DNA from: a bacterium
Lineage (GTDB): Bacteria; Acidobacteriota; Terriglobia; Terriglobales; Acidobacteriaceae
Direction of reading: 5' to 3'
DNA length: 64,000 bases
Assembly (NCBI GenBank): GCA_026225095.1
Contig: JAMFSC010000072.1
Location: 383 to 64,382 of the forward strand
Every line of letters starts with the position of its first letter. Position 1 is the stretch's first letter. Shown in pieces: positions 2,774 through 54,898 of the stretch. Below the pieces are notes generated by a model, which worked only from the letters and a program-made list of their open reading frames with translations, did no database searches and was not told the origin of the DNA. A program made the position numbers and the translations under genes.

Positions 2774-2782
2774 GCGGGCAGG

Positions 2783-4324: not shown

Positions 4325-4350
4325 GGTGGGGTAGGCTTGGGACACACTTT

Positions 4351-5133
4351 ATGGCGGACGCGGACGGTGTCCCGGCGATCTCGGGCGCGATGTTGGGGTT
4401 CTTCCGGCGGATTGTGCGGAGGTATCTGCGGCGGGGCTTTCATGGGGTGAGGGTGCGTGGGGGAGAGCGGTTGGCCGGGGTCTCGGGACCGCTGATCGTG
4501 TATGCGAATCATGGATCCTGGTGGGATCCGATGCTGTCGATTCTGCTGGCGGAGGAGATGCTTCCGGGGCGGAGGCACTATGCTCCGATGGATGCGCGGG
4601 CGCTGGCGCGGTATGGGATTCTGAGACGGGTAGGGATGTTTGGGGTGGAGATGGAGTCGGCGCGGGGTGCGGTGCGGTTTCTGCGGACGGGAGCGGCGAT
4701 TGTGGGGGGTGGAGGGGTGCTGTGGGTGACGCCTCAGGGGCGGTTTGTGGATGCGCGGGTGAGGCCGTTGGGGTTTAAGCCGGGGCTGGCGGCGCTGGCG
4801 GCCCGGGTGGGGGAGGGCTGCATGGTGCTGCCGCTGGCGATTGAGTACACCTTCTGGGATGAGCGTACGCCGGAGTGCCTGGCGCAATTTGGGGAGGCCG
4901 TGGTGGTTCGGGAGGGGGAGATGGCAGAGGCGTTGGGAGTGAGGCTGGAGGGAGCGCTGGCCGGTGCGATGGAGGAGCTGAAGGAGAGAGCGGTGGCGCG
5001 GGATCCGGCGGCGTTTGAGACGGTGGTCTGTGGGACGGCTGGGGCGGGGGGATTCTATGCGGTGGGGCAGATGTTGAAGGCCTGGATGCGGGGCGAAAGG
5101 TACAGGGCGGAGCATACGGTGAGGGGGCGATGA
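4351..5133 (+). CDS. Lysophospholipid/glycerol-3-phosphate acyltransferase family protein (PlsC-like)
   Basis: The HxxxxD acyltransferase motif is present (ANHGSWWD), followed by a VTPQGR block. The start is set at the first ATG after the upstream stop; the ORF track begins earlier, at 4267. Confidence 0.75.
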   Translation: MADADGVPAISGAMLGFFRRIVRRYLRRGFHGVRVRGGERLAGVSGPLIVYANHGSWWDPMLSILLAEEMLPGRRHYAPMDARALARYGILRRVGMFGVEMESARGAVRFLRTGAAIVGGGGVLWVTPQGRFVDARVRPLGFKPGLAALAARVGEGCMVLPLAIEYTFWDERTPECLAQFGEAVVVREGEMAEALGVRLEGALAGAMEELKERAVARDPAAFETVVCGTAGAGGFYAVGQMLKAWMRGERYRAEHTVRGR

Positions 5134-6239
5134 TCGCGGCGTTCGCGGTGGGAGCGGTGATGTGTTCGGTTGGGCCGGCAGTGCTCTTCTGCGTGAACCT
5201 GGGGCGGTACCGGGAGCCAGGGGCCAGCGATGGCGGGAGGGTGTCGGTGCTGATTCCGGCGCGGGATGAGGCGGGATCGATTGGGGCGGCGGTGGGGTCG
5301 GTGCTGGCTTCGCGGGGGGTGGAACTGGAGGTGGTGGTGATGGACGATGGGTCCAGCGATGGGACGGCGGGGGTTGTCGAGGAATTGGCGGCTCGGGATA
5401 CACGGGTGCGGCTGGAGCGGGCTCCGGAGCTGCCGGCGGGTTGGAATGGGAAGCAGCATGCCTGCTGGGCGCTGGCAGCGGTGGCTCGGTATGACGTGAT
5501 GTGTTTTGTGGATGCGGATGTTCGGCTGGAGGCGGAGGCGTTGGCTCGGATGGTGGGGTTTCTGGACGGGAATGGACTGGTGAGTGGATTTCCGAGGGAG
5601 GAGACGGAGACGTGGCTGGAGTGGATGCTGCTGCCGCTGATCCACTTTGCGCTTCTGGGGTTTCTGCCGCTGGAAACGATGCGGGCGGGGACGGATCCCG
5701 CGTTTGCGGCAGGGTGTGGGCAGATTCTGATGGTGCGGCGGGAGGCCTACTTTGCTTCGGGTGGTCATGCGGCGATCCGGGCGACGATGCACGATGGGCT
5801 GCTGCTGCCTCGGGCATTTCGGGCGGCGGGGTTCAGGACGGACCTGGCGGATCTGACCGGTTTGGCGACTTGCAGGATGTATCGGTCGGCGGGGGAGGTC
5901 TTGAAGGGGCTGGCCAAGAACGCAACGGAGGGGATTGCGGATCCGGTGCGGATCGGGCCGATTACGGTGGTGCTTCTGCTGGGACAGGTGCTGCCGTTTG
6001 GGCTGGTGTTCTTTGCCGGGTCGGCGGCGCGGTGGGTTCAGGGATGTGTGCTGGTGGGGATGATTGCCGCCTGGACTCCGCGGCTGCTGGGAATCCGGAG
6101 GTTTCGGCAGGACTGGCGTGGGGCGCTGCTGCATCCTCTTGGGATTCTGATCCTGCTGGCGGTGCAGTGGTATGCGCTGGGACGAAAATGGATGGGTGGG
6201 TCGGTGAGTTGGAAGGCTCGCGCTTATACGGGGTCTTAG
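5130..6239 (+). CDS. Family 2 glycosyltransferase with C-terminal membrane segments
   Basis: GT-A blocks are present (VSVLIPARDE, VVVMDDGSSDGT, FVDADV). The C-terminus is hydrophobic. An ATGA overlap joins it to the upstream acyltransferase gene. Confidence 0.85.
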   Translation: MIAAFAVGAVMCSVGPAVLFCVNLGRYREPGASDGGRVSVLIPARDEAGSIGAAVGSVLASRGVELEVVVMDDGSSDGTAGVVEELAARDTRVRLERAPELPAGWNGKQHACWALAAVARYDVMCFVDADVRLEAEALARMVGFLDGNGLVSGFPREETETWLEWMLLPLIHFALLGFLPLETMRAGTDPAFAAGCGQILMVRREAYFASGGHAAIRATMHDGLLLPRAFRAAGFRTDLADLTGLATCRMYRSAGEVLKGLAKNATEGIADPVRIGPITVVLLLGQVLPFGLVFFAGSAARWVQGCVLVGMIAAWTPRLLGIRRFRQDWRGALLHPLGILILLAVQWYALGRKWMGGSVSWKARAYTGS

Positions 6240-6488
6240 TTGGGGACCCCCGGGAGGGGCCTCACGAGGCTCGCTGGCAATGGGCTCATCGGCCTTCCGA
6301 CAACCGCGACTCCTCACCCTGCATCTGTTGTGAAGAGCGAGCTTAGTTCTTCAGGCCACGGCGATACGAGGAGTCGTTCGTCATGGACTTTTCGGCCATG
6401 GAATGTTGCATGGCCTTTTGAAGGTGATCACAGCAGCCACTCTTTCGAAGCGTAATATGCTCCAAGGAAGTCGTGGGTAAGTTGATAT

Positions 6489-8525
6489 ATGAAACCTGTT
6501 GAAGGCCGAAAGAGAGTGGTGGTTGAGCAGGTCTCCCCGAGGGTAGACTGCGGTCGGTATCCGGCACGTAGGGTCCTGGGAGACGTGATAACGGTCTCCG
6601 CGGCGATCTTTGGTGACGGACATGATCATGTGGCGGGGCGACTGCTCTATCGCCACGAATCGGATCGTCGATGGCGCTCTGCGCCGATGTCGGCCCTCGG
6701 CAACGACGTTTGGGCCGCGGAGTTCAAAGCAGATCAGCCTGGGAGCTGGAAGTTTACGGTTCAGGGCTGGGTTGATCACTTTGGGACATGGTGCGCGGAC
6801 CTCACCAAGCGTCTCGCTGCCCAACCCGACCCTCACCGGCCGGACCTGGCGACCATTTCGCAGGACATTCCTCTCGCCCTGCGCACCGGAGCTTTGCTCC
6901 TGGAGGAGATCGCCAGCCGTGCTCGTGGGGCGGACGCGCGACATTTCGCCGAGGTCATCCAGTCGCTGCGATGGTTGGCGGATCAGAACGCCACGTTCTA
7001 CGAGTACCCCATTACCACCGAGATCCTCGAGATCGCTGCGAGGTATCCCGACCTGACGCTCGCCACGCGCTTCGATCAGGAGCTTCCTCTGTGGGTAGAT
7101 CGGGAGCGGGCGCGTTACTCCAGTTGGTACGAACTGTTTCCAAGGTCTACGTCTCCGGACCCTTCGCGCACGGGAACATTTGCCGATGTCGAGCTTCTGC
7201 TCCCCGAGATCGCGGCCATGGGTTTTGACGTTCTGTATCTGCCTCCGATTCATCCCATCGGCACGGCGTTCCGCAAAGGACCGAATAACAACGTGGTCGC
7301 TGAGCCGGGGGATCTTGGAAGTCCCTGGGCGATCGGGGCCGCGCGTACGGCGGGAGTTGAGGGCGGGCACAAATCGATTCATCCCGAACTTGGCACGCTC
7401 GAGAGCTTCGATCATCTCGTCGCGGCCACGCTGGAACATGGGATGGAGATCGCGATGGACATTGCGTTCCAGGCGTCGCCCGACCATCCCTGGGTGATCG
7501 ATCATCCGACGTGGTTCAAGCATCGTCCGGATGGTTCGATTCAATACGCCGAGAACCCTCCGAAGAAGTACCAGGACATCTATCCGCTCGACTTCGAATC
7601 GGTTGATTGGCGGGCTCTGTGGGAGGAGCTCTACTCCGTTTTCAAGTTCTGGGTCGATCGCAACGTGCGTATCTTCCGGGTCGATAATCCCCATACCAAG
7701 GCGCTTCCGTTCTGGGAGTGGGTGATCGAGAGGATTCACGCGGATCATCCGGATGTGATCTTACTGGCCGAAGCCTTCACCCGGCCACACGTCATGTACT
7801 CGCTCGCCAAGGCAGGCTTTACGCAGTCTTATACCTACTTCACCTGGCGCAACACCAAGGCGGAGATTCAGCAGTACTTCGAAGAGATCACGAAGCCGCC
7901 GGTCAGTGATTTCTTCCAACCGAACCTCTGGCCGAATACGCCTGACATCCTTCACGAGTTTCTTCAGAAGGGCGGGCGACCCGCCTTCATGCAGCGTCTC
8001 ATCCTTGCATCGACGCTTGGTGCGAACTACGGCATCTATGGTCCGGCGTATGAGCTGGGAGAGAACACACCGGCGAAGGCGATCAGCGAAGAGTATCTGA
8101 ACAGCGAGAAGTATGAGGCGCGTGCCTGGGACCGGAGGGCGAGCCATACGATCGCGCCGCTGGTGACCAGGGTGAACCAGATTCGGCGAGCGAATCCGGC
8201 CTTGCAGAGCAACGAGTCCCTGCACTTTCATACCGTGGATAATCCCAACCTGCTTTGCTACAGCAAGACGAAAGCAGGCGTGGATGGGCTTGAGAATGTG
8301 ATTCTGGTCGCGATCAACCTCGATCCGTCGCAGGAGCAGTCGGGCTGGATCGATCTTGATCTGAAGCAGCTCGGCATCCCCCACAATCAGAGCTTCGATG
8401 TGGAGGATCTGCTGACCGGTACGCACTACCAGTGGCACGACCGCAGCAACTATGTGGCGCTTCGTCCTGAAGTTCTCCCAGCGCATGTCTTCCGGGTCAC
8501 CCGTTTGCCGGCCAACCCTTCCTGA
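6489..8525 (+). CDS. glgE: Alpha-1,4-glucan:maltose-1-phosphate maltosyltransferase
   Basis: A GlgE-type N-terminal domain is present (VVVEQVSPRVDCGRYPARRVLGD). GH13 catalytic blocks are present (FDVLYLPPIHPIG, FRVDNPHTK, ILLAEAFT). It lies adjacent to treS-pep2. Confidence 0.85.
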   Translation: MKPVEGRKRVVVEQVSPRVDCGRYPARRVLGDVITVSAAIFGDGHDHVAGRLLYRHESDRRWRSAPMSALGNDVWAAEFKADQPGSWKFTVQGWVDHFGTWCADLTKRLAAQPDPHRPDLATISQDIPLALRTGALLLEEIASRARGADARHFAEVIQSLRWLADQNATFYEYPITTEILEIAARYPDLTLATRFDQELPLWVDRERARYSSWYELFPRSTSPDPSRTGTFADVELLLPEIAAMGFDVLYLPPIHPIGTAFRKGPNNNVVAEPGDLGSPWAIGAARTAGVEGGHKSIHPELGTLESFDHLVAATLEHGMEIAMDIAFQASPDHPWVIDHPTWFKHRPDGSIQYAENPPKKYQDIYPLDFESVDWRALWEELYSVFKFWVDRNVRIFRVDNPHTKALPFWEWVIERIHADHPDVILLAEAFTRPHVMYSLAKAGFTQSYTYFTWRNTKAEIQQYFEEITKPPVSDFFQPNLWPNTPDILHEFLQKGGRPAFMQRLILASTLGANYGIYGPAYELGENTPAKAISEEYLNSEKYEARAWDRRASHTIAPLVTRVNQIRRANPALQSNESLHFHTVDNPNLLCYSKTKAGVDGLENVILVAINLDPSQEQSGWIDLDLKQLGIPHNQSFDVEDLLTGTHYQWHDRSNYVALRPEVLPAHVFRVTRLPANPS

Positions 8526-8546
8526 ATCAGTCTGGAGTTTTCGAGC

Positions 8547-12209
<3,663 letters not shown>

Positions 12210-14538: not shown

Positions 14539-16932
14539 ATGGCCAAGACCGAAGCACCAAAACCGATACTCGGGACCTCTCCCCTCCGAAAAGAGGGCGT
14601 CGCCAAGGTTCTGGGTGCGACCCGTTATATCGACGACATTGCGCTGGACGGGATGCTGTTTGGCGCGACGGTGCGGGCGTCGATCGCTCGGGGTCGCATC
14701 CTCGATATCCAATTCGAACAGAAGGATGACCTGGGCAATCCGATCGACTGGTCGAAGTTCACGATTGTGACGGCCAATGACATTCCCGGGGAGAACACAA
14801 TCGTCCACCTGACCAAGGATCATCCCTGCCTGGCTGCTGAGTTCATCAACCATCCGGAGGAGCCGATCCTGCTGCTGGCGCACCGCGAGAAGGCGATGCT
14901 TCCGGCTGCGGTTGCGGCGGTGAAGATCACGTACGAGGAGTGGCCTGGGGTCTTCACCATCGAGGACTCGGAGGCGGGGATCGAGCGGGCGAAGGCGGGC
15001 GATGAAACAGGTGTGATCTGGCGCGGGCATGGGCATGGCGGCGGGAACAATACCTTCAAGACCTACTGCATGTTGAAAGACCAAACGGAGATTCCAGAGA
15101 GCGTGTGGGCCGAGGCCGCATACATCGTCGAGGGGGAGTACCGGACGGGGGCGCAGGAGCAGCTTTACATCGAGAACAACGGTGTGATCGCAGAGTGCGT
15201 CGTGGCCGATGAAGCCGTGCAAGAGGTGACGGTGCAGGGCTCGATGCAGTGCCCGTTCTATCTCGTCCACGCGCTGGAGCTTGTGTTCAATTTACCCGCC
15301 GACCGGTGCAGGGTGATCCAGGTGGAGACGGGAGGGGCATTCGGGGGTAAGGAAGACTTTCCTTCCGTGATCGGATCGCACGCGGCGCTGCTGGCGATGA
15401 AGTCTGGGCGGCCTGTGAAGATGACGTACGACCGGGCGGAGGACATGGTCGCGACGACCAAGCGGCATCCCTCTCGAACGCGGCATCGCACGGCGGTGGC
15501 GAAGGATGGCAGGCTGCTGGCGGGGGAGATTGAATTTGTGATCGATGGGGGAGCTTATGCGACGCTGTCTCCGGTGGTGCTTTCGCGCGGGGTGATCCAT
15601 TCTCCGGGGCCCTATGACTGGCCCTATCTGCGCGTGGATGGGAGGGCGGTGGCGACCAACGTTGCTCCGCATGGGGCGTTTCGCGGCTTTGGGGCTCCGC
15701 AGAGCATCTTCGCGGTGGAACGGCATATGGACAAGATCGCCGGGGTAGTGGGAATCACTCCGGAGGAGATGCGGCGGAGGAACTTTCTAAAGTCTGGGGA
15801 GAAGACGGCTACGGGCCAGCATCTTTCGGACCCAGTCGATCTACAGGGGCTACTGACGCGGGCGCTGCGCGAGGCGGACTATCACCGGAAGCGCGAGGAG
15901 TTTGCCCGGACCAACGTGGGGGCGGTCGTGAAGCGTGGGATTGGGTTTGCGAGCTTCTTTCACGGATCTGGATTTACGGGGTCGGGGGAGCGGCGGCTGA
16001 ACTCGCTCGTCGAGATCGAGCTGAACGCGGAGGGGATGCCGAACATCCTGGTTTCCTCGACGGAGTTTGGGCAGGGGACGAACACGATCCTGTGCCAGGT
16101 GGCGGCGCAGACTCTGAAGATTCCCTATGACGATGTGCTGATTGCCCAACCGGATACTTACCGGGTTCCTAACTCGGGACCGACGGTGGCGAGCCGGACG
16201 GCGATGATCGTGGGCAAGCTGGTGGAGCGGGCGGCCGAGCAGCTTTGTGTCACCCTGGTGGGGTCGGGCTTTCTGGCCGAAGGGTATACGGGCGAGGAGT
16301 TCAAGGACGGGGCGAAGCGGTATCTGGCTGCGAACGGGGCGTTGAAGGCGAGCGTGCGGTACCAGGCTCCGGCGGATATCTTCTGGGATGACGAGCAGTA
16401 TCGGGGGGATGCGTACCCGGCGTATGCGTGGGCAGTCTATGTGGCTGAGGTCGCTGTCGATACGCGGACCTACCAGGCGACGGTGACGGACTTTCATGCG
16501 CTGCAGGAGGTGGGCAAGGTCCTGCATCCGAAGCTCGCCGCCGGGCAGATTGAGGGTGGGGTCGCGCAGGGGATCGGGTATGCGCTGTACGAGAAGTGCG
16601 TGTGGCAGAACGGGCGGATGGCCAATAACCAGATGACGAACTACATTATGCCGACGAGTGCGGATCTGCCACCGATTCATGCACATTTCGAAGAGGTGCC
16701 GTCAATCCATGGCCCGGGCGGGGCCAAGGGGATTGGGGAGCTGCCGATGGATGGGCCGGCTCCGGCGATCCTGAATGCGATCGAGCAGGCGACGGGCATT
16801 GCGTTTGGAGAGATTCCGCTGCTGCCGGAGGATATCTTCGCCCGGATGACGGGAACCGACGGGGCGGAGAAACTAAATCCGGACGTGATGGAGCCCGCGA
16901 TTGCCGCGGCGGTGGGCGAGGTGGGGGATTGA
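14539..16932 (+). CDS. Xanthine dehydrogenase/aldehyde oxidase family, molybdopterin-binding large subunit
   Basis: Family blocks are present (LRKEGVAKVLGATRYIDD, GGAFGGKE, GFGAPQ, GQIEGGVAQGIGYAL, PMDGP). The start could instead be GTG 14497. Confidence 0.9.
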   Translation: MAKTEAPKPILGTSPLRKEGVAKVLGATRYIDDIALDGMLFGATVRASIARGRILDIQFEQKDDLGNPIDWSKFTIVTANDIPGENTIVHLTKDHPCLAAEFINHPEEPILLLAHREKAMLPAAVAAVKITYEEWPGVFTIEDSEAGIERAKAGDETGVIWRGHGHGGGNNTFKTYCMLKDQTEIPESVWAEAAYIVEGEYRTGAQEQLYIENNGVIAECVVADEAVQEVTVQGSMQCPFYLVHALELVFNLPADRCRVIQVETGGAFGGKEDFPSVIGSHAALLAMKSGRPVKMTYDRAEDMVATTKRHPSRTRHRTAVAKDGRLLAGEIEFVIDGGAYATLSPVVLSRGVIHSPGPYDWPYLRVDGRAVATNVAPHGAFRGFGAPQSIFAVERHMDKIAGVVGITPEEMRRRNFLKSGEKTATGQHLSDPVDLQGLLTRALREADYHRKREEFARTNVGAVVKRGIGFASFFHGSGFTGSGERRLNSLVEIELNAEGMPNILVSSTEFGQGTNTILCQVAAQTLKIPYDDVLIAQPDTYRVPNSGPTVASRTAMIVGKLVERAAEQLCVTLVGSGFLAEGYTGEEFKDGAKRYLAANGALKASVRYQAPADIFWDDEQYRGDAYPAYAWAVYVAEVAVDTRTYQATVTDFHALQEVGKVLHPKLAAGQIEGGVAQGIGYALYEKCVWQNGRMANNQMTNYIMPTSADLPPIHAHFEEVPSIHGPGGAKGIGELPMDGPAPAILNAIEQATGIAFGEIPLLPEDIFARMTGTDGAEKLNPDVMEPAIAAAVGEVGD

Positions 16933-17408
16933 TGGCGGGCTTAGCTGCGGTGAGGTTTCGGGTGAATGGGGTGGAGCGGACGGTGGAGGCTCCTCCGGTG
17001 AAGAGGCTTCTGGATGTATTGCGCGAAGATCTGCAACTGACCGGAACCAAGGAGGGCTGCGGCGAGGGAGAGTGCGGATCGTGCGCGGTGCTGATGAATG
17101 GGGAGTTGGTGAACAGCTGCCTGGTCCCGGTGCTGCAGGCGGAGGGGGCAGTCGTCTGCACGATTGAGGGTGTCTCCGTCGATGGACGGCTGGCGCCGGT
17201 GCAGCAGTGTTTTCTGGAAGAGGGTGGGGCGCAGTGCGGAATCTGCACGCCGGGGATGATTCTTGCGACGCATCATCTGCTGGAGAAGTATCCGCAACCG
17301 ACCTTGTTACAGATTCAGGAAGGGCTGGCCGGGAATCTGTGCAGGTGTACGGGGTATATGCGGATCTTCGAGGCGGTTCGGCAGGCGAGCGAGCGGGGTA
17401 GAGACTAA
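16932..17408 (+). CDS. (2Fe-2S)-binding small subunit of molybdenum hydroxylase
   Basis: Both cysteine clusters are present (GCGEGECGSCAV and CGICTPGM...CRCTGY). Its start overlaps the stop of the large-subunit gene (TGATG). Confidence 0.9.
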   Translation: MAGLAAVRFRVNGVERTVEAPPVKRLLDVLREDLQLTGTKEGCGEGECGSCAVLMNGELVNSCLVPVLQAEGAVVCTIEGVSVDGRLAPVQQCFLEEGGAQCGICTPGMILATHHLLEKYPQPTLLQIQEGLAGNLCRCTGYMRIFEAVRQASERGRD

Positions 17409-28067: not shown

Positions 28068-28242
<175 letters not shown>

Positions 28243-45772: not shown

Positions 45773-47104
45773 TCACTGGCCGGTCAGCGTATCTTCGAGT
45801 TCCTTTGCCCAGGCGGCGGCCGTTCCGCGCGCCTCTCGCTTTTCGCGAATCAGGCGAAGATTTCGCGCGGTGGTCTCGGGTTCCCACGGTTCGCGGATGC
45901 AGGGAAGCGCGCAGGAGAGAGCCTTGTAAGCATGGTCGCGATTCTCTTCGAGCACCGCAAGTTCAAGGAGAGTCGCATAGTCCCAGTAGTCGGGCTTAGC
46001 CCTTGCGATCTTGCGCTCGACGCTGTAACGGACGATCGGCAACAGTTCTTTCCTGCGCTCATCCGGCGGGTCCTGTAGCTCCATGAGGGTGACAACATTC
46101 ACCCCGGGGAACGCGTCGCGCCAGTCGGATTCAAATCCACGCAGATAGGTTTCGATCGCTTTGGTCAGATAGCCTGAGGCAAGGGCGGGTTTGCCAGCCT
46201 TGAGGGCGTCCTCCCACAGGTCCTTGTAGACTCTGCCGAGGAGGCCGCAGGTCTCGCTGCTGGGGCCGCGTTCGTCGATGAGCTTCTGCAGGACCGCCTC
46301 CGCTTCTGGTCGACGCTTAAGGCGATTGAGCGCAAACCCGAGCTGCTCCCTCACCATGACCGTATTGGCCAACGGCCTGGAGAAAGCATCCTTGATGAGG
46401 GCGACCATATCCTCCCATGCCGAAACGGCCCGGTACGAGAGCATGAGATCGATTGCGATGCCGGATTCCACCTCGGCGACATCGCCAAGGCCCCGCTGGA
46501 TCGCGCGGACGGCATCCACACCGGCCTTGCGGGCGGCCACGAGTTGTTCCTTGATGTCGGCCGAGTACTCGATCCGGTCGCGAAACACGTCGGTCTTGAG
46601 GTGTTCGATCAAGGGCTCCGGCAGACCGTCGAGGAGCTGGAAGATGGGACTGTCTTTGGACCCTTTGCGCGACTCCTCGATGAAGCGCACGATGATCTCC
46701 TGGGTGGACTTCACGGCGGCAGGATCGAGTGTGCCATCGGGCAGGAGCTTGTACGGAATGGTTCTGAGCATCTGGACGTCAAAGGGCAGCCTGACTCCTT
46801 CGGCCATGATCTGCACCGTGCTCTTGGACTTGAAAGCGTGGCGAACGCCGAGTTCATAGAAGACGTTGGCGTTGGCGGTGGTGAGGTCGGCCACGGCGAA
46901 GGGACAGAGCAGCAGGCGCTCGAACATGGGCTTGTGAATGATGCCGCCCGTGTTCTCCTCGTCCGCGCGGATGGGTTCGAGTTTCGCGTCGCGGATGGCG
47001 GGTGCGATCAGACCCGCGTAAACCTGGTCGAAGTCGATCAGGGTTCCGTCAGCAGAGGCTTTCTTGCCGAACGGCATCAGCACAAAACACAATGGCAACT
47101 TCAC
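45773..47104 (-). CDS. Two-domain protein: Rossmann-like N-terminal head (nucleoside 2-deoxyribosyltransferase/TIR-like by eye) fused to an ASK1/DUF4071-like helical-repeat module
   Basis: The N-terminus reads CFVLMPFGKK...IDFDQVY...CPFAVADLT...NVFYELGVRH. The C-terminal half aligns with the C-terminus of the upstream gene product. The GTG start overlaps the upstream stop (GTGA). Confidence 0.8.
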   Translation of the reverse strand: MKLPLCFVLMPFGKKASADGTLIDFDQVYAGLIAPAIRDAKLEPIRADEENTGGIIHKPMFERLLLCPFAVADLTTANANVFYELGVRHAFKSKSTVQIMAEGVRLPFDVQMLRTIPYKLLPDGTLDPAAVKSTQEIIVRFIEESRKGSKDSPIFQLLDGLPEPLIEHLKTDVFRDRIEYSADIKEQLVAARKAGVDAVRAIQRGLGDVAEVESGIAIDLMLSYRAVSAWEDMVALIKDAFSRPLANTVMVREQLGFALNRLKRRPEAEAVLQKLIDERGPSSETCGLLGRVYKDLWEDALKAGKPALASGYLTKAIETYLRGFESDWRDAFPGVNVVTLMELQDPPDERRKELLPIVRYSVERKIARAKPDYWDYATLLELAVLEENRDHAYKALSCALPCIREPWEPETTARNLRLIREKREARGTAAAWAKELEDTLTGQ

Positions 47105-48531
47105 GAGATGCCTCTTTCATAACAGTCCGCCATGGCCTTCACCTGCGATTCCGGCAGCTTCAGGTAACCGGCGAGTTGGAGTGCCTGCTCCTCCATCGAC
47201 TGGGCCTCCCATGGCTCCAATTGCTGAGCGGCGGCATCCTTGTGATGCTTGAGTCCCTCAGGAATTTGGCCCAGTATGAGCAGCGCATCCCCCTGCGTCG
47301 GCAAAACCCAATGGTTCTTTGCCGGATCCTTGGCGTGTCTGCAGTGATCGAGCACCGCCTCTGCCATCTTTTCTGCCGCGGGTCGATCGCCTGTTCCCAC
47401 CAGCACGAGGTATGCGAGATTGATGCCATGATAGTAGGCTTGATCGTGGTCTGGGCTGGACTTCCCGGTAGCCTGATTGTAGGCAGCTTGATAGAGCTCG
47501 ATGGCCTTGGTCAGATCGTCGCGCTTGCGATTGAACAACCAGCGGCGCTTGAATCGGCCGGCCAGTGTCCCGAGCGCGTCGGTTCCGGAGGGCTTGTGCG
47601 CCAGCAGGAGGCGCATCGCATCTTCGCGGCTGCCGGTCTGCTCGAGAGCGATGGCCAGAAGCACGGCCGCATGGTCGTCCAATCCGTCCGGAGGTGGCGA
47701 ATCCGGGCCATCACGACCGGGCCATAGTTGCCGAATCACATTGCGAAACCTGCCCAATTGAATGGATACATTCGCCGAGCTTTGCACTCCGATTGCGGCC
47801 TTGTCGCCAACGATCGACTGCACGAGGATCTGGACGCAGGAGTCGTTGGGCGACTTCGCGTCGAGCATGGTGATGTGGTTGCCGGGGATCACGCGCTGCG
47901 TCGAGCTTGGGAAATCGGCGAGAGACGAGCCTGGAGGCACAAACTGGTCCATCTCCCCGGCTACCGTCGTGAAGGTAAACTGAGGCACCGTATCAAGCTT
48001 CAACTTGTCCCATGCCGCCCTCAGGCGCGTGATGAAAGCTCCGCCTGCTTCCATGTTCTGGATCTGCCGCTTCCAGAAGAAGAGCGCCCTTGCCTTCACC
48101 AGGCCCTTGCTTGGTGTTCCAAAGAGCACCACATGAGAGGTACGCTTTCTGAGCGCGGCGTCGGTCACCAGGGCTTGCTGGACTACCAGTCCACCCATGC
48201 TGTGGGCGACGAATGCGACGGTCTCATAGTGTTTGATTTCTGGGTGCTCCGCGAGCTTGATTGCGATCTCTTCGAGCTTCGCGTCGGCGCTCCACAGTCC
48301 TACCAGATCAAAAAGCTTGGAGCTGTGGTAGCCGAATCCGCGAAGGTCCCAGTCCTGCAGTGCGTCCATCGGCTTTAGATAGGCGGGGATACTTCGCCAA
48401 GTCGTTCGTACGTCCCCTGTAAACCCGTGGACGAAGATGATGGCGGCCTTGTTTGCCTTGGCCCCAGGCGCAAGCTTCTGCGCGGTGTCTTTATTATTTT
48501 CATCGTTGCGAAAATCTATGAAATCCAGCAT
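47101..48531 (-). CDS. Two-domain protein: alpha/beta-hydrolase (lipase/esterase-like) head fused to an ASK1/DUF4071-like helical-repeat module
   Basis: IIFVHGFTGD is present, as is the nucleophile elbow FVAHSMGGLV. The C-terminal ~230 aa are paralogous to the C-terminus of the downstream gene product. The start is at the MLDFIDF methionine, with GAAGG upstream. Confidence 0.8.
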   Translation of the reverse strand: MLDFIDFRNDENNKDTAQKLAPGAKANKAAIIFVHGFTGDVRTTWRSIPAYLKPMDALQDWDLRGFGYHSSKLFDLVGLWSADAKLEEIAIKLAEHPEIKHYETVAFVAHSMGGLVVQQALVTDAALRKRTSHVVLFGTPSKGLVKARALFFWKRQIQNMEAGGAFITRLRAAWDKLKLDTVPQFTFTTVAGEMDQFVPPGSSLADFPSSTQRVIPGNHITMLDAKSPNDSCVQILVQSIVGDKAAIGVQSSANVSIQLGRFRNVIRQLWPGRDGPDSPPPDGLDDHAAVLLAIALEQTGSREDAMRLLLAHKPSGTDALGTLAGRFKRRWLFNRKRDDLTKAIELYQAAYNQATGKSSPDHDQAYYHGINLAYLVLVGTGDRPAAEKMAEAVLDHCRHAKDPAKNHWVLPTQGDALLILGQIPEGLKHHKDAAAQQLEPWEAQSMEEQALQLAGYLKLPESQVKAMADCYERGIS

Positions 48532-49093
48532 TGCGACACCTTCGATGTGAAGATAGAGACGCCCCCCGGGGGGTACAAGGCGTCGGGCGGAGAGCCCTGT
48601 CCGGACCACGGTAGTGTATAGTCTCCGCCTTGGCCGAGGTAGCATTTATTTGGTTGTTACTTTTCGAAGCTGCCTCTGGGCTGCGTAAGCGTTCTGAAGC
48701 ATGACCCCGCGTAGACATTCGACCAGTACGACCGTAGGGGCACTCGATGCGTTTTTTCAACCATGCACAAAGCATGCTAAAACATGGGCATTGAATAGTC
48801 GGGCTCTCGTCATTCCACGTTAGCCATCTCGCGAGTTGCTGAGCCCGAACTCAGCGCACAACGCCCCGAATCAGGGAGATGCAGGCCGGAGAAAAGCCCT
48901 GCCCGCCGGGTGTCCTCAAGATGCTGAGGGAACAATCGACTAGAAAGGGAGATCGCCCCAGATCGGGCGTGAGTTGGCAGGCGTCTCTCCTCGCCCTCAC
49001 TTTTTTGGCGAACTCATACAATATCTCTCCTTCCGATGCGTTAACACCTACAGAGACCCTAGACCTCCGCAGGGAGACAGAAGAGGATGCAGG

Positions 49094-49663
49094 ATGTCAA
49101 GCCAGGAATGGACGATTGCCGAGCAGGACCAGTTCATCGCCGAAGCATTGCAGCGCGATGAACCGCGTCTGCGAAGTTTCATCGGCAAAAGGGTCTTCGA
49201 TTCCGGCGACGCGGAGGATGTGCTTCAAGATGTGTTCTATGAGCTGATCCAGACCTATCGAATGATGAAGCCGGTAGAGAAGGTGACGGCCTGGCTCTTT
49301 CGAGTTGCGCGGAATCGCATTACCGACCTCTTCCGCAGGCAGCGGCCTGATTCTCTGAATGAGCCGATTGGAGGAGAGGCGGAGTCGGGTGTGCTGCTCG
49401 ATCTGCTGCCGTCAGACGACGATGGGCCGGATGCTGCCTACGCACGCAACCTACTCTTCGAATCACTGGATGAAGCACTCGAAGAGCTTCCCGAAGAGCA
49501 GCGCAATGTGTTCATCGCCCATGAACTGATGGGCAGGAGCTTCAAGGAGATCTCCGCTGAGTCAGGGATCAGTGTCAATACGCTTTTGTCGCGGAAGCGT
49601 TACGCGGTCTTGCACCTTCGAGAGCGCCTCCGCGAGATTCGGGAAGATTTTGTAAAGGAATGA
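49094..49663 (+). CDS. ECF-type RNA polymerase sigma-70 family factor
   Basis: Region 2 is present (DAEDVLQDVFYELI, WLFRVARNRITDLFRR). Region 4 is present (LPEEQRNVFIAHELMGRSFKEISAESGISVNTLLSRKRYA). Confidence 0.9.
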   Translation: MSSQEWTIAEQDQFIAEALQRDEPRLRSFIGKRVFDSGDAEDVLQDVFYELIQTYRMMKPVEKVTAWLFRVARNRITDLFRRQRPDSLNEPIGGEAESGVLLDLLPSDDDGPDAAYARNLLFESLDEALEELPEEQRNVFIAHELMGRSFKEISAESGISVNTLLSRKRYAVLHLRERLREIREDFVKE

Positions 49664-50299: not shown

Positions 50300-53200
50300 T
50301 CAGACCCTGACGATCGGGGTATCGCGCATCAGGCCAAGACGGGCCTGGCAGAAGTATTCGAAACGGATGCCAAAGGTGCGGCGTGTCTGACTCCAGTAGC
50401 GCTGGAAACGTGGACTGCGCGCCCAGCGCATAAACATGATCGCCCAGCCACGATTATCCGGATGTTCCCAGAAGTCATCAAGCCGAAGGTCCATGAAGAC
50501 ATCTTCCATGAGTTGGGTGAGCTCTAGCGCCATGCACAGTTCTTCGCTGGCCTGATGTGGGTTGCCGGCGCTCGGCGGTACGACCGCGATCGGTGGATGG
50601 ATGTGCATGAGCTCATCGACAAAGCCATGCAGTGCGGGTGACTTACGGAACTGCTCCCACATTCGTTCGAGCGTTTGGGTATGCCTCAGAAAGGCCTCGC
50701 CGGTCGTGCGCGCCGGAGCAATCACATCCGCCAGCTTCACCGCCACGTCGACCGCGGAGCTACCCGGCTGGTTGCCACGCAGTGAGTGCCGAACGACGTG
50801 CTGGCCAAGCTTCCGATAGCTTTCGAACTGATCTTCCGAGAAGAACTGGTTCGCAGTCGTCTCATGCGGGAAGGTGGGGTGAACGGAGCGATACTGCGCG
50901 ACGCCTACATCCTCGTCTCCGGAGACCGACGCCTTGAGATAGATGAGGTAGCCGATGCTGCCATTGCTGTACTTGATGGTGCCTACAGCGCAGTGCGCGA
51001 GGCTGAAACCATCCTTCTGGTCACGAATGCTCTTCACGTCGATGTCGATAACTGCACCGAAGTCCGTTGCACAGATTCGCACAAGATTGCCCAAACCCCC
51101 AAATTGCAGGAGCTCGTCACACTCCGCGTCGCATGCGATGATGACCTTGCAGCGGCGGCGGATGAGTTCGTACACTCCGAGGTTTTCGAAGTGGCCGCCG
51201 TCAGAGACATTGAGGAACATCCGCGTCTCGTCTGCGGTTCCGAGCAGCTCCTTGGTCAGATAGTAAAGGCTAAAGCTCAGGCCGCTCTTGTTCCACGCGC
51301 GCTTGTGTCCTGGGTTCGGGAACCACCAGCCGAGGCGCACGTTGAACATGGTCAGCAGGAAAGCGACCAGCGGGTTGGTGTTGTAGCCCATGTTGGGGCT
51401 GGCCGCAGCGCCCGATATGGCTACTGCCTGGCCCAGCTTGACGCCCCCGGCGAAGCTCGCCTTGGCTGTGCGCGGTGTGGGGCCGCCGGTCGGTGCGAAG
51501 CCCACCTTTGCGCGGTCGGCTCCGCAGTGCAAGGGGGTCAAGGTGAAGGATGCACTGTGCCGGCTGTGGAGTACAAGATCCGAACTTCCGGCGAGATTCA
51601 AGGTGCAATTGAAGATCGGAAACGGGCCGCGGTACTGATATCTGAGACTGCTGAGTGGAAGGTCGTCGTTGAAGTCGAACTTGGTAAAGGGATGCGGCTT
51701 GCGCAGACCTGGAGCCCAACGGGTCGCCCCCAGATAGCAGCGCACCAAACGATTGCGGTAGAACTGGCTAAGGCCGAAGATGTTAATCTCGAAGAACCAC
51801 GAGAACAACAGTCCAACCGCGATGACGACGACGCAGGTGCCGAGGAACTTCAGGCGGTCCATATCGTTCAGCGTCGTCCAGTACTCCGCGTCAGGCGAAT
51901 CACTAGTGGCGAAGTAAAGCAGGAAAAAATGGAGAGCGGAGGCCGCACCAATGACCGCTCCAAGGATGAACAGCAGGCCACCGACCCGCGCAAGAATCTC
52001 GAGTCCAAGCTTCTTGCCGGGCGATCCATCCCCCGCGGTTTTGCTGCTATTGCCGGCGAAGAGCCCGGCAACGACCGTGCCCATCCACGTAGCGATGGAG
52101 CCCCATCTTACGGTCGAGTACTCCATGGAAAAGAGATAGGTCGTCAGCATCGGACCGAAGATTGCTACGGCCGTAAGCACGAGGCCGAGCGCACAGTAGA
52201 TCATCAGCCATGCCCCGAATCTCGTCCACCACTCGCGTTGGGCTTCGTTGGAATTACGGCCAGATAGACCGATGAAGATGACCACACTCACAATGAAGGC
52301 GCCGAGCACAAGCGCCGGCCCAAAGACGAACGCATACGATCCATAGCGGCCAGGGTCGGGGCTCACCCAGTGGAGGAAGAGGTAGAGGATGGCGCAAACC
52401 AGAAGATAGAGGACCGCGAGGCAGAGGGTGCCGATCCAGAGGGCTCGCAAGAGGCGTTCACCGTAAGGATGGGCTCTGACGGTGGCCAATCTGACGCGAT
52501 TGAGGAATCGGTCGGCCAGGCTCATGTGACATGGCTTGCTCCACTCCGCAGCCTGCGTGGCGGCTGCGACCTGTTCTCTCAAGGCCTCCAGTTGGGCGAC
52601 CCCTTCAAGCGTTACCCTTGGGCCTGCAGCCTCCGCCTTCGAGAGTTCTTTCGCCAGCTTCTTCGCAGCCTTCGCCTTTGCGTCTGCATCGAGCGCAGCG
52701 TAGAGTTTCTTTTCCAGATTCTTCGCAGGCTCGATGTAGGCAGGTGGCAGATGCGGCTTCAGAGCGAACCACCCGATCAGCAACATCCCTCCGAGATGGA
52801 GGGCCAGCAGTGGCAACATGGTCGAAGCGGCCTTCTGGAGGACGTAGGAGAATGCGTGATATTGCTCAGGCGGCCCCCCGCTCCAGACCGGACCCCGCGC
52901 ATCATGCCAAAGCATACTCGCGATGATGAAGGAACCGATCCAGGATGGAAGCACGGCCAGCCAGCGGATCAGGCTCGCCTGGGGCGAAGCCTTCCCGGTC
53001 TCCACGCGGTTGCCGATGAAGTTGTAGATCAACGTGATCAACACCAGCAATGACATGGCAAAAGCAATCAGCCCAACCCAGGGATGGCTTGCCTGCCGAG
53101 ACAAGGCAAGGAAGACCATTTGGCCGACGAGCGCAGACAGAAGCAGCGCGAAAAGCCAGATGAGCCCCGTGAGTTGAATAAGAAAGGTATTGCGGATCCA

Positions 53201-54898
53201 GCTTGCACCGAGCGTCCAGGTATCGGCGCTCAGTAGCCCGGTGATGGGTGCGAGGTAGCTGGCGTAGGAGCGGAGATGCGCGATCGATTCATCCCAGCAG
53301 GTTGCTCGGCCAAGCCAGTGACGGGTTCGAAGGACATTGGCCACAAGCCACGAGCCGATGAAGCCGCCACCTGAAACGGTCGAAAGGTAGTCCACCTGGC
53401 GAAGCAGGTCGAACTCTTGCAGCCCCTGCAGGACACCGAGATTGAACGTGGCGCTCCGGATGCCGCCACCCGAAAAGGCAAGGCCGATGCGGTTGTGCGG
53501 CTGCCTCCCCGTGATGATGCGCTCGCTCCAACCGAGGAACGGAGACCGGCCCGTCGGCGAATCGCTCGAATCTTCCGGAAAAGCAGTCACGGTATAGTTC
53601 CGCAATGATCGCTGCCGATCAATCTCGCGCAACTCCTTGTCGAAGACGGACCTCCAACGTTCGTTCGAACGCGGCACTTTCTTCTCATCCGGATATTGTT
53701 GCCGGTTGCATGCGTAGTGCTCGCGCTCGTCACTCACCTCGACTGCATTTTGCACCAGATCGCACACAAAGTCGAAGACCGAGCGCAGCACCTCTTCGCA
53801 CCGCTTGAGCCGTTCCTCGCGAACGTTCATTCCCTCCAGCGTTGCGCGAAAGCGCAGCAGGTGGATCCACGACACGCGTGCATAGTTCACCGATGCATTC
53901 GCCGACACCTCCGCGCGTAGCACCCGAGCGATCCAGTAGATCTCCGCGAGGGCAAAACGCGCTACGACTGGATTTGTAATCATCTCGTCTCCGCCAGGCT
54001 TCAGCGTGACAGGCTCATCGCATGAGCCGCTTTCGGAGACCATGCGCTGCTGAAGCCGGAGGTAGAACTCAGCGTGCGCGTCGACCCACGCGACCAACTG
54101 CTCGCTGACGCGTTCGAACCGCGCGTTCTGCATCTGGGCCTTGGCCCGCGACTGGACACGCGCCTCTTCCTGGATCCGCAACTCGGTTGGGTCAACCGTT
54201 GGAATCGGGTCCGGATTCATGTCCGTCCGGTCGACCGGAAGAAGGCGGCGCAGCCAGAGCTCGTACTGGGTCGTCTCATCGAGATCGTTCTGGAGGGAAA
54301 CTTCCGGTTGCCGAGGATCGTTGTGGAACCCGTCAAGGAAGCCCAACGCCTCTTCCCAGTCCAGCCTGGACTGCATCTCGAGAAACCTTGCGTAGTCCTC
54401 CTCGCGGCATCTGCCCGGACCATCCGGGGGAGGTGGGACGGCAATCGGAAACCAGCGTCGATTCGGCAGTTCGCCGACGCGATCGCATGGCAGAGGACTG
54501 GTCTCCCAATCCATCGGGAAATAGCGTCCTGCCAGCATTCGAACGCCAAAGTAAAGATATGCGTTGGCATAGCGGAGAAAGGCCTCGGAATTCGCCACTA
54601 GGGCACCCAGGCCAGGCGTCCGCACCGCCTGCAGTTCAATATCCGTCAACACCCCTACCTGGTGGCCAATCTCGAGCAGCGTAAGCGCTTCCAGAGCCTC
54701 GTCGAGTCGCAAACGAGTCTGCACGATAAGATCGCCGCGGGTCAGCGTGAACGCTGCGTCGTCGTGTGGACGCAGGAGCGCACGAAGGTCCTCCTCCTTG
54801 ACCTCGGGGCGAGTGAGATCGTCGAAGATCTTCCAAAGATCGTCTCCGTTCCGGTTGCGCCCGGCAATCAGGCGCTCTTTCGCACCCGGATCACTCAT
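50300..54898 (-). CDS. Giant (1532 aa) membrane-embedded patatin/cPLA2-like phospholipase
   Basis: The oxyanion motif AFSGGGIRS lies at about aa 475-481. The nucleophile-elbow-like STVSGGGFIGSW has its Ser at about aa 509. About ten hydrophobic helices and a Lys/Ala-rich coiled coil follow. The catalytic Asp motif NVSDGGHFENLG lies at about aa 1233. The N-terminal ~470 aa and C-terminal ~200 aa are unassigned. Confidence 0.85.
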   Translation of the reverse strand: MSDPGAKERLIAGRNRNGDDLWKIFDDLTRPEVKEEDLRALLRPHDDAAFTLTRGDLIVQTRLRLDEALEALTLLEIGHQVGVLTDIELQAVRTPGLGALVANSEAFLRYANAYLYFGVRMLAGRYFPMDWETSPLPCDRVGELPNRRWFPIAVPPPPDGPGRCREEDYARFLEMQSRLDWEEALGFLDGFHNDPRQPEVSLQNDLDETTQYELWLRRLLPVDRTDMNPDPIPTVDPTELRIQEEARVQSRAKAQMQNARFERVSEQLVAWVDAHAEFYLRLQQRMVSESGSCDEPVTLKPGGDEMITNPVVARFALAEIYWIARVLRAEVSANASVNYARVSWIHLLRFRATLEGMNVREERLKRCEEVLRSVFDFVCDLVQNAVEVSDEREHYACNRQQYPDEKKVPRSNERWRSVFDKELREIDRQRSLRNYTVTAFPEDSSDSPTGRSPFLGWSERIITGRQPHNRIGLAFSGGGIRSATFNLGVLQGLQEFDLLRQVDYLSTVSGGGFIGSWLVANVLRTRHWLGRATCWDESIAHLRSYASYLAPITGLLSADTWTLGASWIRNTFLIQLTGLIWLFALLLSALVGQMVFLALSRQASHPWVGLIAFAMSLLVLITLIYNFIGNRVETGKASPQASLIRWLAVLPSWIGSFIIASMLWHDARGPVWSGGPPEQYHAFSYVLQKAASTMLPLLALHLGGMLLIGWFALKPHLPPAYIEPAKNLEKKLYAALDADAKAKAAKKLAKELSKAEAAGPRVTLEGVAQLEALREQVAAATQAAEWSKPCHMSLADRFLNRVRLATVRAHPYGERLLRALWIGTLCLAVLYLLVCAILYLFLHWVSPDPGRYGSYAFVFGPALVLGAFIVSVVIFIGLSGRNSNEAQREWWTRFGAWLMIYCALGLVLTAVAIFGPMLTTYLFSMEYSTVRWGSIATWMGTVVAGLFAGNSSKTAGDGSPGKKLGLEILARVGGLLFILGAVIGAASALHFFLLYFATSDSPDAEYWTTLNDMDRLKFLGTCVVVIAVGLLFSWFFEINIFGLSQFYRNRLVRCYLGATRWAPGLRKPHPFTKFDFNDDLPLSSLRYQYRGPFPIFNCTLNLAGSSDLVLHSRHSASFTLTPLHCGADRAKVGFAPTGGPTPRTAKASFAGGVKLGQAVAISGAAASPNMGYNTNPLVAFLLTMFNVRLGWWFPNPGHKRAWNKSGLSFSLYYLTKELLGTADETRMFLNVSDGGHFENLGVYELIRRRCKVIIACDAECDELLQFGGLGNLVRICATDFGAVIDIDVKSIRDQKDGFSLAHCAVGTIKYSNGSIGYLIYLKASVSGDEDVGVAQYRSVHPTFPHETTANQFFSEDQFESYRKLGQHVVRHSLRGNQPGSSAVDVAVKLADVIAPARTTGEAFLRHTQTLERMWEQFRKSPALHGFVDELMHIHPPIAVVPPSAGNPHQASEELCMALELTQLMEDVFMDLRLDDFWEHPDNRGWAIMFMRWARSPRFQRYWSQTRRTFGIRFEYFCQARLGLMRDTPIVRV

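Follow-up and report, generated by a model that had tools for sequence, protein, structure and literature searches.

The window, which is the whole 64-kb stretch of contig JAMFSC010000072.1 analysed here, comes from a bacterium of the Acidobacteriaceae and contains two overlapping minus-strand genes, designated A and B, whose products carry the same helical sensor module, TPR-S, behind two different enzymatic heads (Table 1; positions are those of the window). Inspection of the open reading frames (ORFs) bore out the overlap by GTGA that had been claimed in the original prediction, which was made from the sequence alone, and located every peptide quoted there, including IIFVHGFTGD, AHSMGG, CFVLMPFGKK, NVFYELGVRH and the pair GTLAGRFKRRW/GLLGRVYKDLW. 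Gene A begins with the ATG at 48531, in agreement with the starts of its homologues, and ends with the TGA at 47101-47103; its open frame reaches up to 48645, and a longer ORF (47101-48645) is possible. The start codon of gene B is a GTG (47102-47104) that overlaps the TGA of gene A, and a Shine-Dalgarno-like AAGAGG lies at 47111-47116, 6 nucleotides 5' of this GTG and inside the final codons of gene A. At 47105-47116, and at the junctions of the related loci L001, L092 and L094, TATGAGGG codes for the conserved Tyr-Glu-Gly at the C-terminus of A and is also the Shine-Dalgarno sequence of gene B. This raises the possibility that the conservation at the C-terminus of A may, in part, reflect the ribosome-binding site of B. 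The conserved stop/start overlap suggests that A and B are expressed as one unit, and the two proteins would be expected to be co-translated and to form a heteromer. A promoter and terminator scan of the locus gave signals no higher than those of shuffled controls.

The head of A was identified as an alpha/beta-hydrolase from profiles, conserved residues and a structural model, as the original prediction had it. Pfam places Abhydrolase_6 (28.2 bits, cutoff 26.3) and DUF676 (25.2 bits, cutoff 20.3) at residues 31-178, with PGAP1 nearby; these matches are weak but above threshold. A profile of the head matched the putative lipase 7x2p (E 8e-8) and the Legionella phospholipase PlaB (E 3e-3), and Foldseek searches with an AlphaFold2 (AF2) model of A, with a predicted local distance difference test (pLDDT) score of 82, returned CALB-type lipases, PlaB and the yeast serine hydrolase YDR428C. 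Alignment of 29 homologues of A indicates that Ser111, Asp195 and His219, together with His35 and Gly36, are invariant and, due to this invariant Ser-Asp-His triad and oxyanion motif, the head looks catalytically competent. No PADLOC model matches A, and NCBIfam holds no equivalog at cutoff for the pair, the best matches lying far below the cutoffs. Many homologues of A are labelled 'pimeloyl-ACP methyl ester carboxylesterase' by JGI; identity of A with this enzyme, BioH, was rejected as no BioH model of NCBIfam matched.

The head of B belongs to the nucleoside 2-deoxyribosyltransferase/DNPH1-like (DRHyd) N-glycosidases. Comparison of the B-head profile with the PDB gave 13 matches, 12 of them to Rcl/DNPH1 N-hydrolases (E 0.0026-0.04) with the catalytic YELG aligned, and in an alignment of the first ~170 residues of the B family and ThsI proteins R46, D48, D73, N78, N80, Y83, E84, G86, R88 and H89 are invariant. 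This kinship is seen at the profile level against DNPH1/Rcl, and B itself has no match at E<=1 to the Pfam family PF05014 (Nuc_deoxyrib_tr). Nor does B match the Pfam TIR families PF13676, PF08937 and PF01582 at E<=1, and a classical TIR domain was rejected for this reason. A weak PADLOC 'Effector TIR' match (3e-6, residues 50-116) is consistent with the known kinship of TIR and DRHyd domains. The head had been described as deoxyribosyltransferase-like or TIR-like, and it is the first of these descriptions that stands.

Along its full length, B resembles the ThsI proteins of type VIII Thoeris, a system that consists of a ThsB TIR and a ThsI annotated as 'CMP hydrolase and TPR' (TPR, tetratricopeptide repeat; Yirmiya et al., Sorek laboratory, December 2025, 10.64898/2025.12.03.692087). 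The verified Pseudomonas operon of this type was located in a JGI metagenome (L067; ThsI 2748-3986, ThsB 3989-4393); its ThsI carries the same two Pfam families as B and aligns with residues 2-411 of B at 27% identity (BLASTP, E 2e-35). Furthermore, N80 and E84 of B are the equivalents of N82 and E86 of BcTpr, a Bacillus cereus protein with a MilB-like N-glycosidase head and a TPR tail, in which these two residues are essential for NADase activity and defence (2023 preprint, 10.1101/2023.05.26.542521). By its sequence, B is thus a member of the already characterised ThsI/BcTpr family. The view of the pair as an uncharacterised effector system, and not housekeeping metabolism, consequently no longer applies to B in its first part and holds in its second.

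The two proteins are joined by their C-terminal module. Pfam PF20308 (TPR-S; gathering threshold 27.6) matches both A (1e-16, 61.7 bits, residues 283-375) and B (2e-23, 83.3 bits), and PF13281 (MAP3K_TRAF_bd/DUF4071; gathering threshold 24.1) matches B (8e-44, 150.6 bits, residues 81-428) and not A at E<=1. A direct BLASTP comparison of the two proteins yields no significant match (E 0.38); aligning their families with hhalign gave a probability of 92% and E 5.3e-7 over residues 291-443 of A and 254-409 of B. The shared module that had been proposed for the C-terminal ~230 residues is therefore real but spans ~150 residues, and its likeness to DUF4071 holds for B, by PF13281, TPR-S and the ASK1 fold, and for A is confined to TPR-S. 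A further alignment brought together the TPR-S modules of four groups: A homologues representing six phyla, members of the B family, true ThsI proteins and one trypsin-TPR-S protein. The motifs G..(G/A)..K(R).W, A...Y, Y.G.N.A, W..AT and PWE recur in all four groups and in A take the form GxLAGRxKRRW (K328, W331), YYHGINLAY (N371), W..AT and PWE, which points to one putative, conserved binding site carried on different enzymatic heads. The closest solved structures belong to the animal stress kinase ASK1 (MAP3K5): the B-family profile identified 8qgy (1.2e-12) and 5ulm (7.5e-12) in the PDB, and an AF2 model of B (pLDDT 82.6, and >90 in the helical half) found the same entries as its best PDB matches in Foldseek (8qgy, 3e-9; 5ulm, 3e-7, TM 0.56). 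In bacteria, TPR-S corresponds to the regulatory region of ASK1. In a phmmer comparison FYELG of B lies opposite FYHLG of ASK1, in an alignment that is weak and not significant over this stretch.

Table 1. Features of the A-B pair in the window, with related loci (L numbers) and fusion proteins (P numbers). ABH, alpha/beta-hydrolase; aa, amino acids.
Feature	Position or identifier	Strand	Description	Basis
Gene A	47101..48531	minus	476 aa, alpha/beta-hydrolase + TPR-S	ORF, Pfam, homologues
Gene B	45773..47104	minus	443 aa, DRHyd + TPR-S, ThsI/BcTpr-family homologue	ORF, Pfam, BLASTP
A-B overlap	47101..47104	minus	GTGA, stop/start	codons checked
A head	47797..48459	minus	lipase-like alpha/beta-hydrolase (~aa 25-245)	triad, profiles, Foldseek
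A His35-Gly36	48424-48429	minus	oxyanion-hole HG	invariant, codons checked
A Ser111	48199-48201	minus	nucleophile elbow, AHSMGG	invariant, codons checked
A Asp195	47947-47949	minus	GExDQFVPP	invariant, codons checked
A His219	47875-47877	minus	PGNH	invariant, codons checked
A sensor module	47197..47685	minus	TPR-S helical repeats (~aa 283-445)	Pfam, hhalign, motifs
B head	46655..47104	minus	nucleoside 2-deoxyribosyltransferase/DNPH1-like (DRHyd) N-glycosidase (~aa 1-150)	alignment, profile
B Asn78	46871-46873	minus		invariant
B Asn80	46865-46867	minus		invariant
B Glu84	46853-46855	minus		invariant
B sensor module	45821..46582	minus	ASK1-like TPR-S/MAP3K_TRAF_bd repeats (~aa 175-428; K294, W297, N336)	Pfam, profile, Foldseek
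A-B pair	L001		overlap GTGA; flanks isoprenoid and PFOR genes	
A-B pair	L002		overlap TGATG; flanks PadR/MacB and type VI secretion genes	
A-B pair	L092		overlap ATGA; then convergent TIR_2-WD40 gene	
A-B pair	L094		overlap GTGA; inside trp gene cluster, between trpB and trpA	
A homologue	L003		divergent B-like gene, ABH-TPR-S, TIR_2 gene, another TIR-bearing ORF	
A homologue	L006		CHAT-TIR, ABH-TPR-S, DRHyd-TPR	
A homologue	L007		SLOG-like ORF, ABH-TPR-S, true ThsI (phmmer 2.8e-118 to ThsI), ThsB_TIR; TIR-TGT gene upstream	
A homologue	L008		ThsB_TIR, SLOG-like ORF, ABH-TPR-S	
A homologue	L009		ABH-TPR-S fused to C-terminal TIR_2; three ThsB_TIR genes	
A homologue	L010		two ThsB_TIR genes downstream of A homologue	
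A homologue	L011		TIR-FGE, ABH-TPR-S, B homologue (59% identity)	
Fusion	P0308, P0313, P0352 (also L009)		ABH-TPR-S-TIR_2	
Fusion	P0292		TIR_2-nSTAND1-ABH-TPR-S	
Fusion	P0249		nSTAND1-ABH-TPR-S	
Fusion	P0290		RyR-domain-ABH-TPR-S	
Fusion	P0338		ABH-TPR-S-AAA_15/21	

The overlapping A-B pair recurs in four other contigs, all Acidobacteriota-like, with unrelated flanks (L001, L002, L092 and L094; Table 1). That the two genes would be neighbours in related genomes, and would not be embedded in a metabolic operon, had both been anticipated: the overlapping pair is found in several unrelated contexts and no conserved metabolic operon surrounds it in these four loci. Because the pair, with its stop/start overlap, sits in unrelated flanks, the A-B cassette appears to behave like a mobile unit.

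The relatives of A form a widespread family, with 728 homologues in a word-indexed search and 292 matches at E<=1e-30 among 1.84 billion cluster representatives (50% identity). Full-length relatives occur in Terriglobia, Acidobacteriaceae, Roseiarcus, Planctomycetaceae, Desulfuromonadales, Sphingomonas, Dehalococcoidia and Chlorobium, and no plasmid-borne homologue of A was found at E<=1e-10. In L006-L011 homologues of A adjoin ThsB_TIR, TIR_2 or other TIR-bearing genes and, in the fusions listed in Table 1, the alpha/beta-hydrolase-TPR-S protein is itself joined to other domains in architectures that are typical of conflict systems. The A family is distinct and, judged by these associations in other phyla, tied to TIR signalling. 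When the ThsB proteins adjoining A homologues were compared with eight Thoeris TIR sequences from Table S1 of 10.64898/2025.12.03.692087, those of L008 and L010 had their best match among the eight to the type VIII TIRs, which weakly favours a cADPR-like signal (cADPR, cyclic ADP-ribose). The RyR fusion of P0290 is of separate note because, in animals, cADPR classically acts on ryanodine receptors. A further observation concerns ORFs of ~200 residues that overlap the starts of the A homologues in L007 (5360-5962) and L008 (3971-4543) and have weak YpsA/YAcAr (SLOG) matches (E 0.18 and 0.02); these SLOG-like ORFs may be a further conserved nucleotide-binding component.

Homologues of B, named 'TRAFs-binding domain-containing protein' by NCBI, are found at 55-60% identity on megaplasmids of cultured Rhizobium, Paraburkholderia, Agrobacterium and Aliarcobacter. 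On plasmid pCC511_4 of Rhizobium sophoriradicis (L096) a B homologue of 54.5% identity lies among three TIR genes, and on a small Pseudomonas plasmid a ThsI-like gene is directly followed by a TIR gene. TIR genes occur near relatives in L003, L007, L011, L092 and L096, and a TIR protein is in most cases the third component of the system in relatives, one that the window lacks. The neighbours of the B homologue in L096 are a TIR gene, a QueC-like gene, an HhH-GPD glycosylase, a 467-residue TIR protein, a DUF4231 (SLATT-type) gene and another TIR gene. The TIR protein of L007 contains a tRNA-guanine transglycosylase-like region and is similar to the TIR protein of L096, and together they hint at a 7-deazaguanine-linked TIR module. 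In L093, a B homologue lies near a Trypsin_2-TPR-S protein, a calcineurin-like (Metallophos) gene and a Macro-domain gene (2767-9010), which, by their predicted domains, are another set of heads and ADP-ribose (ADPR)-processing enzymes around the same sensor. In L001, 5 kb from the A-B pair, a second ThsI-like gene is split into two ORFs (16340-17293; N-terminal part against ThsI, 4.9e-37) and may be a pseudogene or a frameshift error. After the ThsI-ThsB operon of L067 come genes of the adenosine deaminase, Ham1/ITPase-like and SIR2_2 types (4510-6837), and an ORF beyond these (6973-7818) has a DRHyd-like resemblance to B (1.3e-16).

Around the pair, the window has an ordinary appearance: its flanks encode an outer-membrane barrel protein, an extracytoplasmic function (ECF) sigma factor, histidine kinases and glycosidases. 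A gene at 50300-54898 on the minus strand, 1.7 kb upstream of A and on the same strand, encodes a multi-transmembrane protein of 1532 residues with a patatin phospholipase domain, and is separated from A by the divergent ECF sigma gene (48974-49663); patatin is among the recorded partners of 'core Tpr' (10.1101/2023.05.26.542521). The idea of a mobile island was considered and set aside: no integrase was found in the window, and its sole tRNA, tRNA-Pro (CGG; 28068-28144, plus strand), lies 17 kb from the pair and is followed by histidine kinases, with no clear island. At this tRNA the G+C content falls from ~0.63 to ~0.54, and the region at 28-42 kb encodes PAS histidine kinases and response regulators.

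Given that B is homologous to ThsI, that A shares the sensor of B and that the A family is found beside TIR genes, it is suggested, with a probability of roughly 60%, that A-B is a translationally coupled two-effector module, gated by TPR-S, of the type VIII Thoeris/'core Tpr' kind. In type VIII Thoeris, the ThsB TIR alone makes canonical cADPR upon infection and ThsI responds; added cADPR halts the growth of, or kills, cells with the type VIII system/ThsI, and the TPR of ThsI was proposed as the receptor with reference to a prediction by Burroughs and Aravind from 2020 (10.64898/2025.12.03.692087). BcTpr binds cADPR with a Kd of 1.9 uM (10.1101/2023.05.26.542521). By analogy, the TPR-S modules of A and B would perceive a nucleotide derived from NAD+, with cADPR or a closely related molecule as the probable candidate, and the ligand on TPR-S would release or assemble the N-terminal enzyme. 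Once activated, the DRHyd N-glycosidase of B would cleave NAD+ or nucleotides and the Ser-Asp-His lipase or esterase of A would act, most likely, on membrane lipid, and together the two would arrest or kill the infected cell; an anti-phage role of this locus would follow. As no TIR gene was found in the window, whose source contig is only ~65 kb long, the signal would be supplied by a TIR gene located at another place in the genome or, as claimed for BcTpr, by the DRHyd head of B itself.

Several observations weigh against this assignment. In a scan of six-frame ORFs with ThsB-like and TIR_2-like profiles built from related loci, no match was found in the 64-kb window or in L001, L002, L004, L005, L090 and L091, and none was found at a distance of up to 10 kb from the pair in L001, L002 or L094; the defining signal generator of Thoeris is absent locally. 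Recognisable defence-island neighbours are likewise missing from the window. Furthermore, the identity of B to verified ThsI is no more than 27%, and its ligand specificity may differ as a result. The pairing of the two genes is frequent and not obligatory: A is found alone in L004 (beside an insertion sequence (IS) element), L005, L090 (beside an integrative element) and L091, and B without A in L095 and L093. Finally, the two preprints disagree on the maker of the signal, which is the TIR in one (10.64898/2025.12.03.692087) and the DRHyd head of BcTpr in the other (10.1101/2023.05.26.542521).

This disagreement leads to the first of the alternatives, in which the pair would be a self-contained, TIR-independent system: the head of B would make a cADPR-type signal, both TPR-S modules would read it and A would be the downstream lipase effector. 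Production of a cADPR isomer was ascribed to the N-terminal glycosidase domain of BcTpr and not to BcTir, with BcTpr then binding cADPR, and in a survey of 78 operons 'core Tpr alone' was the commonest configuration (29/78; 10.1101/2023.05.26.542521). Both the want of a TIR near the pair in the window, L001, L002 and L094 and the conserved stop/start overlap, which suggests a single expression unit, would suit such a system. Nevertheless, it is considered unlikely: first, in type VIII Thoeris it is the ThsB TIR alone that makes cADPR on infection, with ThsI as the responder (10.64898/2025.12.03.692087); second, relatives of the pair in L092, L003 and L011 keep an adjoining TIR; and third, a sensor of infection would still be required.

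It is also conceivable that A replaces the TIR as a regulator or trigger of B, its head making, unmasking or destroying the ligand, or A holding B inactive in a TPR-S heteromer. BcTir offers a precedent, as it was reported to be catalytically dead and to act as a regulator in complex with BcTpr (10.1101/2023.05.26.542521). A takes the place of the TIR as neighbour of a ThsI-like gene, albeit upstream and not downstream, and translational coupling suits a stoichiometric complex. However, the Ser-Asp-His triad is perfect in all 29 aligned homologues of A, members of the family occur with ThsB genes and without a ThsI-like gene in L008-L010, and A is fused directly to TIR or STAND domains in the fashion of an effector. 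To our knowledge, there is also no esterase-sensitive ADPR-derived signal in TIR/TPR-S systems, which counts further against this role, and a regulatory A is judged quite unlikely.

A third explanation departs from immunity altogether. As in the animal ASK1 pathway, A and B could be a stress module in which an endogenous NAD+-derived messenger adjusts lipid and nucleotide metabolism. The locus lies amid ordinary chromosomal genes and not in a defence island, the closest solved structural relative of B is the stress kinase ASK1, and a 2026 study in flies connected cADPR with Ask1/JNK signalling. Against this, the closest characterised bacterial relatives are anti-phage systems, the A family has the architectures of conflict systems (TIR, nSTAND1 and AAA_15/21 fusions) and the distribution of the pair is patchy and cassette-like with variable flanks, all of which make a non-immune role very improbable. 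A housekeeping role, with a BioH-like carboxylesterase beside a nucleoside deoxyribosyltransferase for nucleotide salvage, draws on the JGI 'pimeloyl-ACP methyl ester carboxylesterase' labels of many A homologues and on the resemblance of the B head to DNPH1/Rcl but is effectively excluded by the lack of an NCBIfam equivalog at cutoff, by a TPR-S sensor of ~200 residues on both proteins that is foreign to metabolic enzymes, by the lack of a conserved metabolic operon (in L094 the pair sits between trp genes) and by the frequent TIR association and fusions.

Much of what is brought together in this pair has been described before: TPR-S is a curated Pfam family with a predicted sensor role, a ThsI/BcTpr protein has been validated and the link to ASK1 is on record. 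Systems of the 'core Tpr' (TPR-S) kind were reportedly predicted by Burroughs and Aravind in 2020. In the portions of the literature that were accessible, no earlier description was found of an alpha/beta-hydrolase-TPR-S protein as partner or effector, of which Burroughs and Aravind (2020) may hold a prior mention, nor of the coupling of A to a ThsI-like gene, a coupling that in the majority of the examined copies has no TIR gene nearby. A-B is thus an extension of a known system and not a new category. If the role of A is confirmed, alpha/beta-hydrolase-TPR-S would join the effectors of TIR/cADPR-type bacterial immunity, and a single sensor module would be seen to be reused on interchangeable heads (N-glycosidase, lipase and trypsin-like protease). 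The coupled pairs of several contigs with no TIR nearby are relevant to two questions: whether signal production lies with the TIR or with the DRHyd head, and whether effectors can use a generator encoded elsewhere. Were the TIR-independent arrangement true, A would become the first effector of the lipase type to be controlled by cADPR or a similar molecule, and the pair a minimal bacterial model for possible cADPR sensing by the homologous regulatory region of ASK1. A-B is a solid lead both for the Thoeris/cADPR field and for the question about ASK1 that the 2026 fly study raised.

Comparison with known systems places the pair nearest to type VIII Thoeris. B has the architecture of ThsI, matches it from end to end (E 2e-35) and retains the N-x-N...E motif of catalysis; close relatives of A and B adjoin ThsB/TIR genes, and the operon of L007 combines an A homologue with a true ThsI and a ThsB. 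The differences are that the window has no TIR gene, that the identity to ThsI is 27% and that B has, coupled to it on the upstream side, the gene of another TPR-S protein, whose head is an alpha/beta-hydrolase; an alpha/beta-hydrolase-TPR-S effector was not found in the text or in the listed rows of Table S1 of 10.64898/2025.12.03.692087. With BcTir/BcTpr, the pair shares the same core protein, a MilB-like N-glycosidase followed by TPR, in which B keeps the essential Asn and Glu, and core Tpr is known both on its own and with varied partners; these partners are TIR, YpsA, patatin, LSDAT, calcineurin and caspase, and do not include an alpha/beta-hydrolase-TPR-S protein (10.1101/2023.05.26.542521). 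For the head of A, Legionella PlaB is the closest solved phospholipase fold. Patatin phospholipases are lipid-hydrolase effectors gated by nucleotide signals in CBASS (systems of anti-phage signalling based on cyclic oligonucleotides), and A resembles them in its predicted combination of a lipase/phospholipase-like Ser-Asp-His head with a ligand-sensor domain, but differs in that its fold is that of an alpha/beta-hydrolase and not patatin, and its sensor is TPR-S and not SAVED, STING or SLOG. The likeness of B to ASK1, in both profile and fold, starts where the DRHyd-like domain ends and continues across the TPR region, whereas A matches the TPR-S core only and not PF13281. Unlike ASK1, B has no kinase or PH domain, and its head, with the catalytic Glu, looks active, whereas that of ASK1, with His, does not. 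The 2026 fly study suggests that Ask1 may itself act as a receptor of cADPR, and for such a binding site tractable models could be found among small soluble bacterial TPR-S proteins, A and B included.

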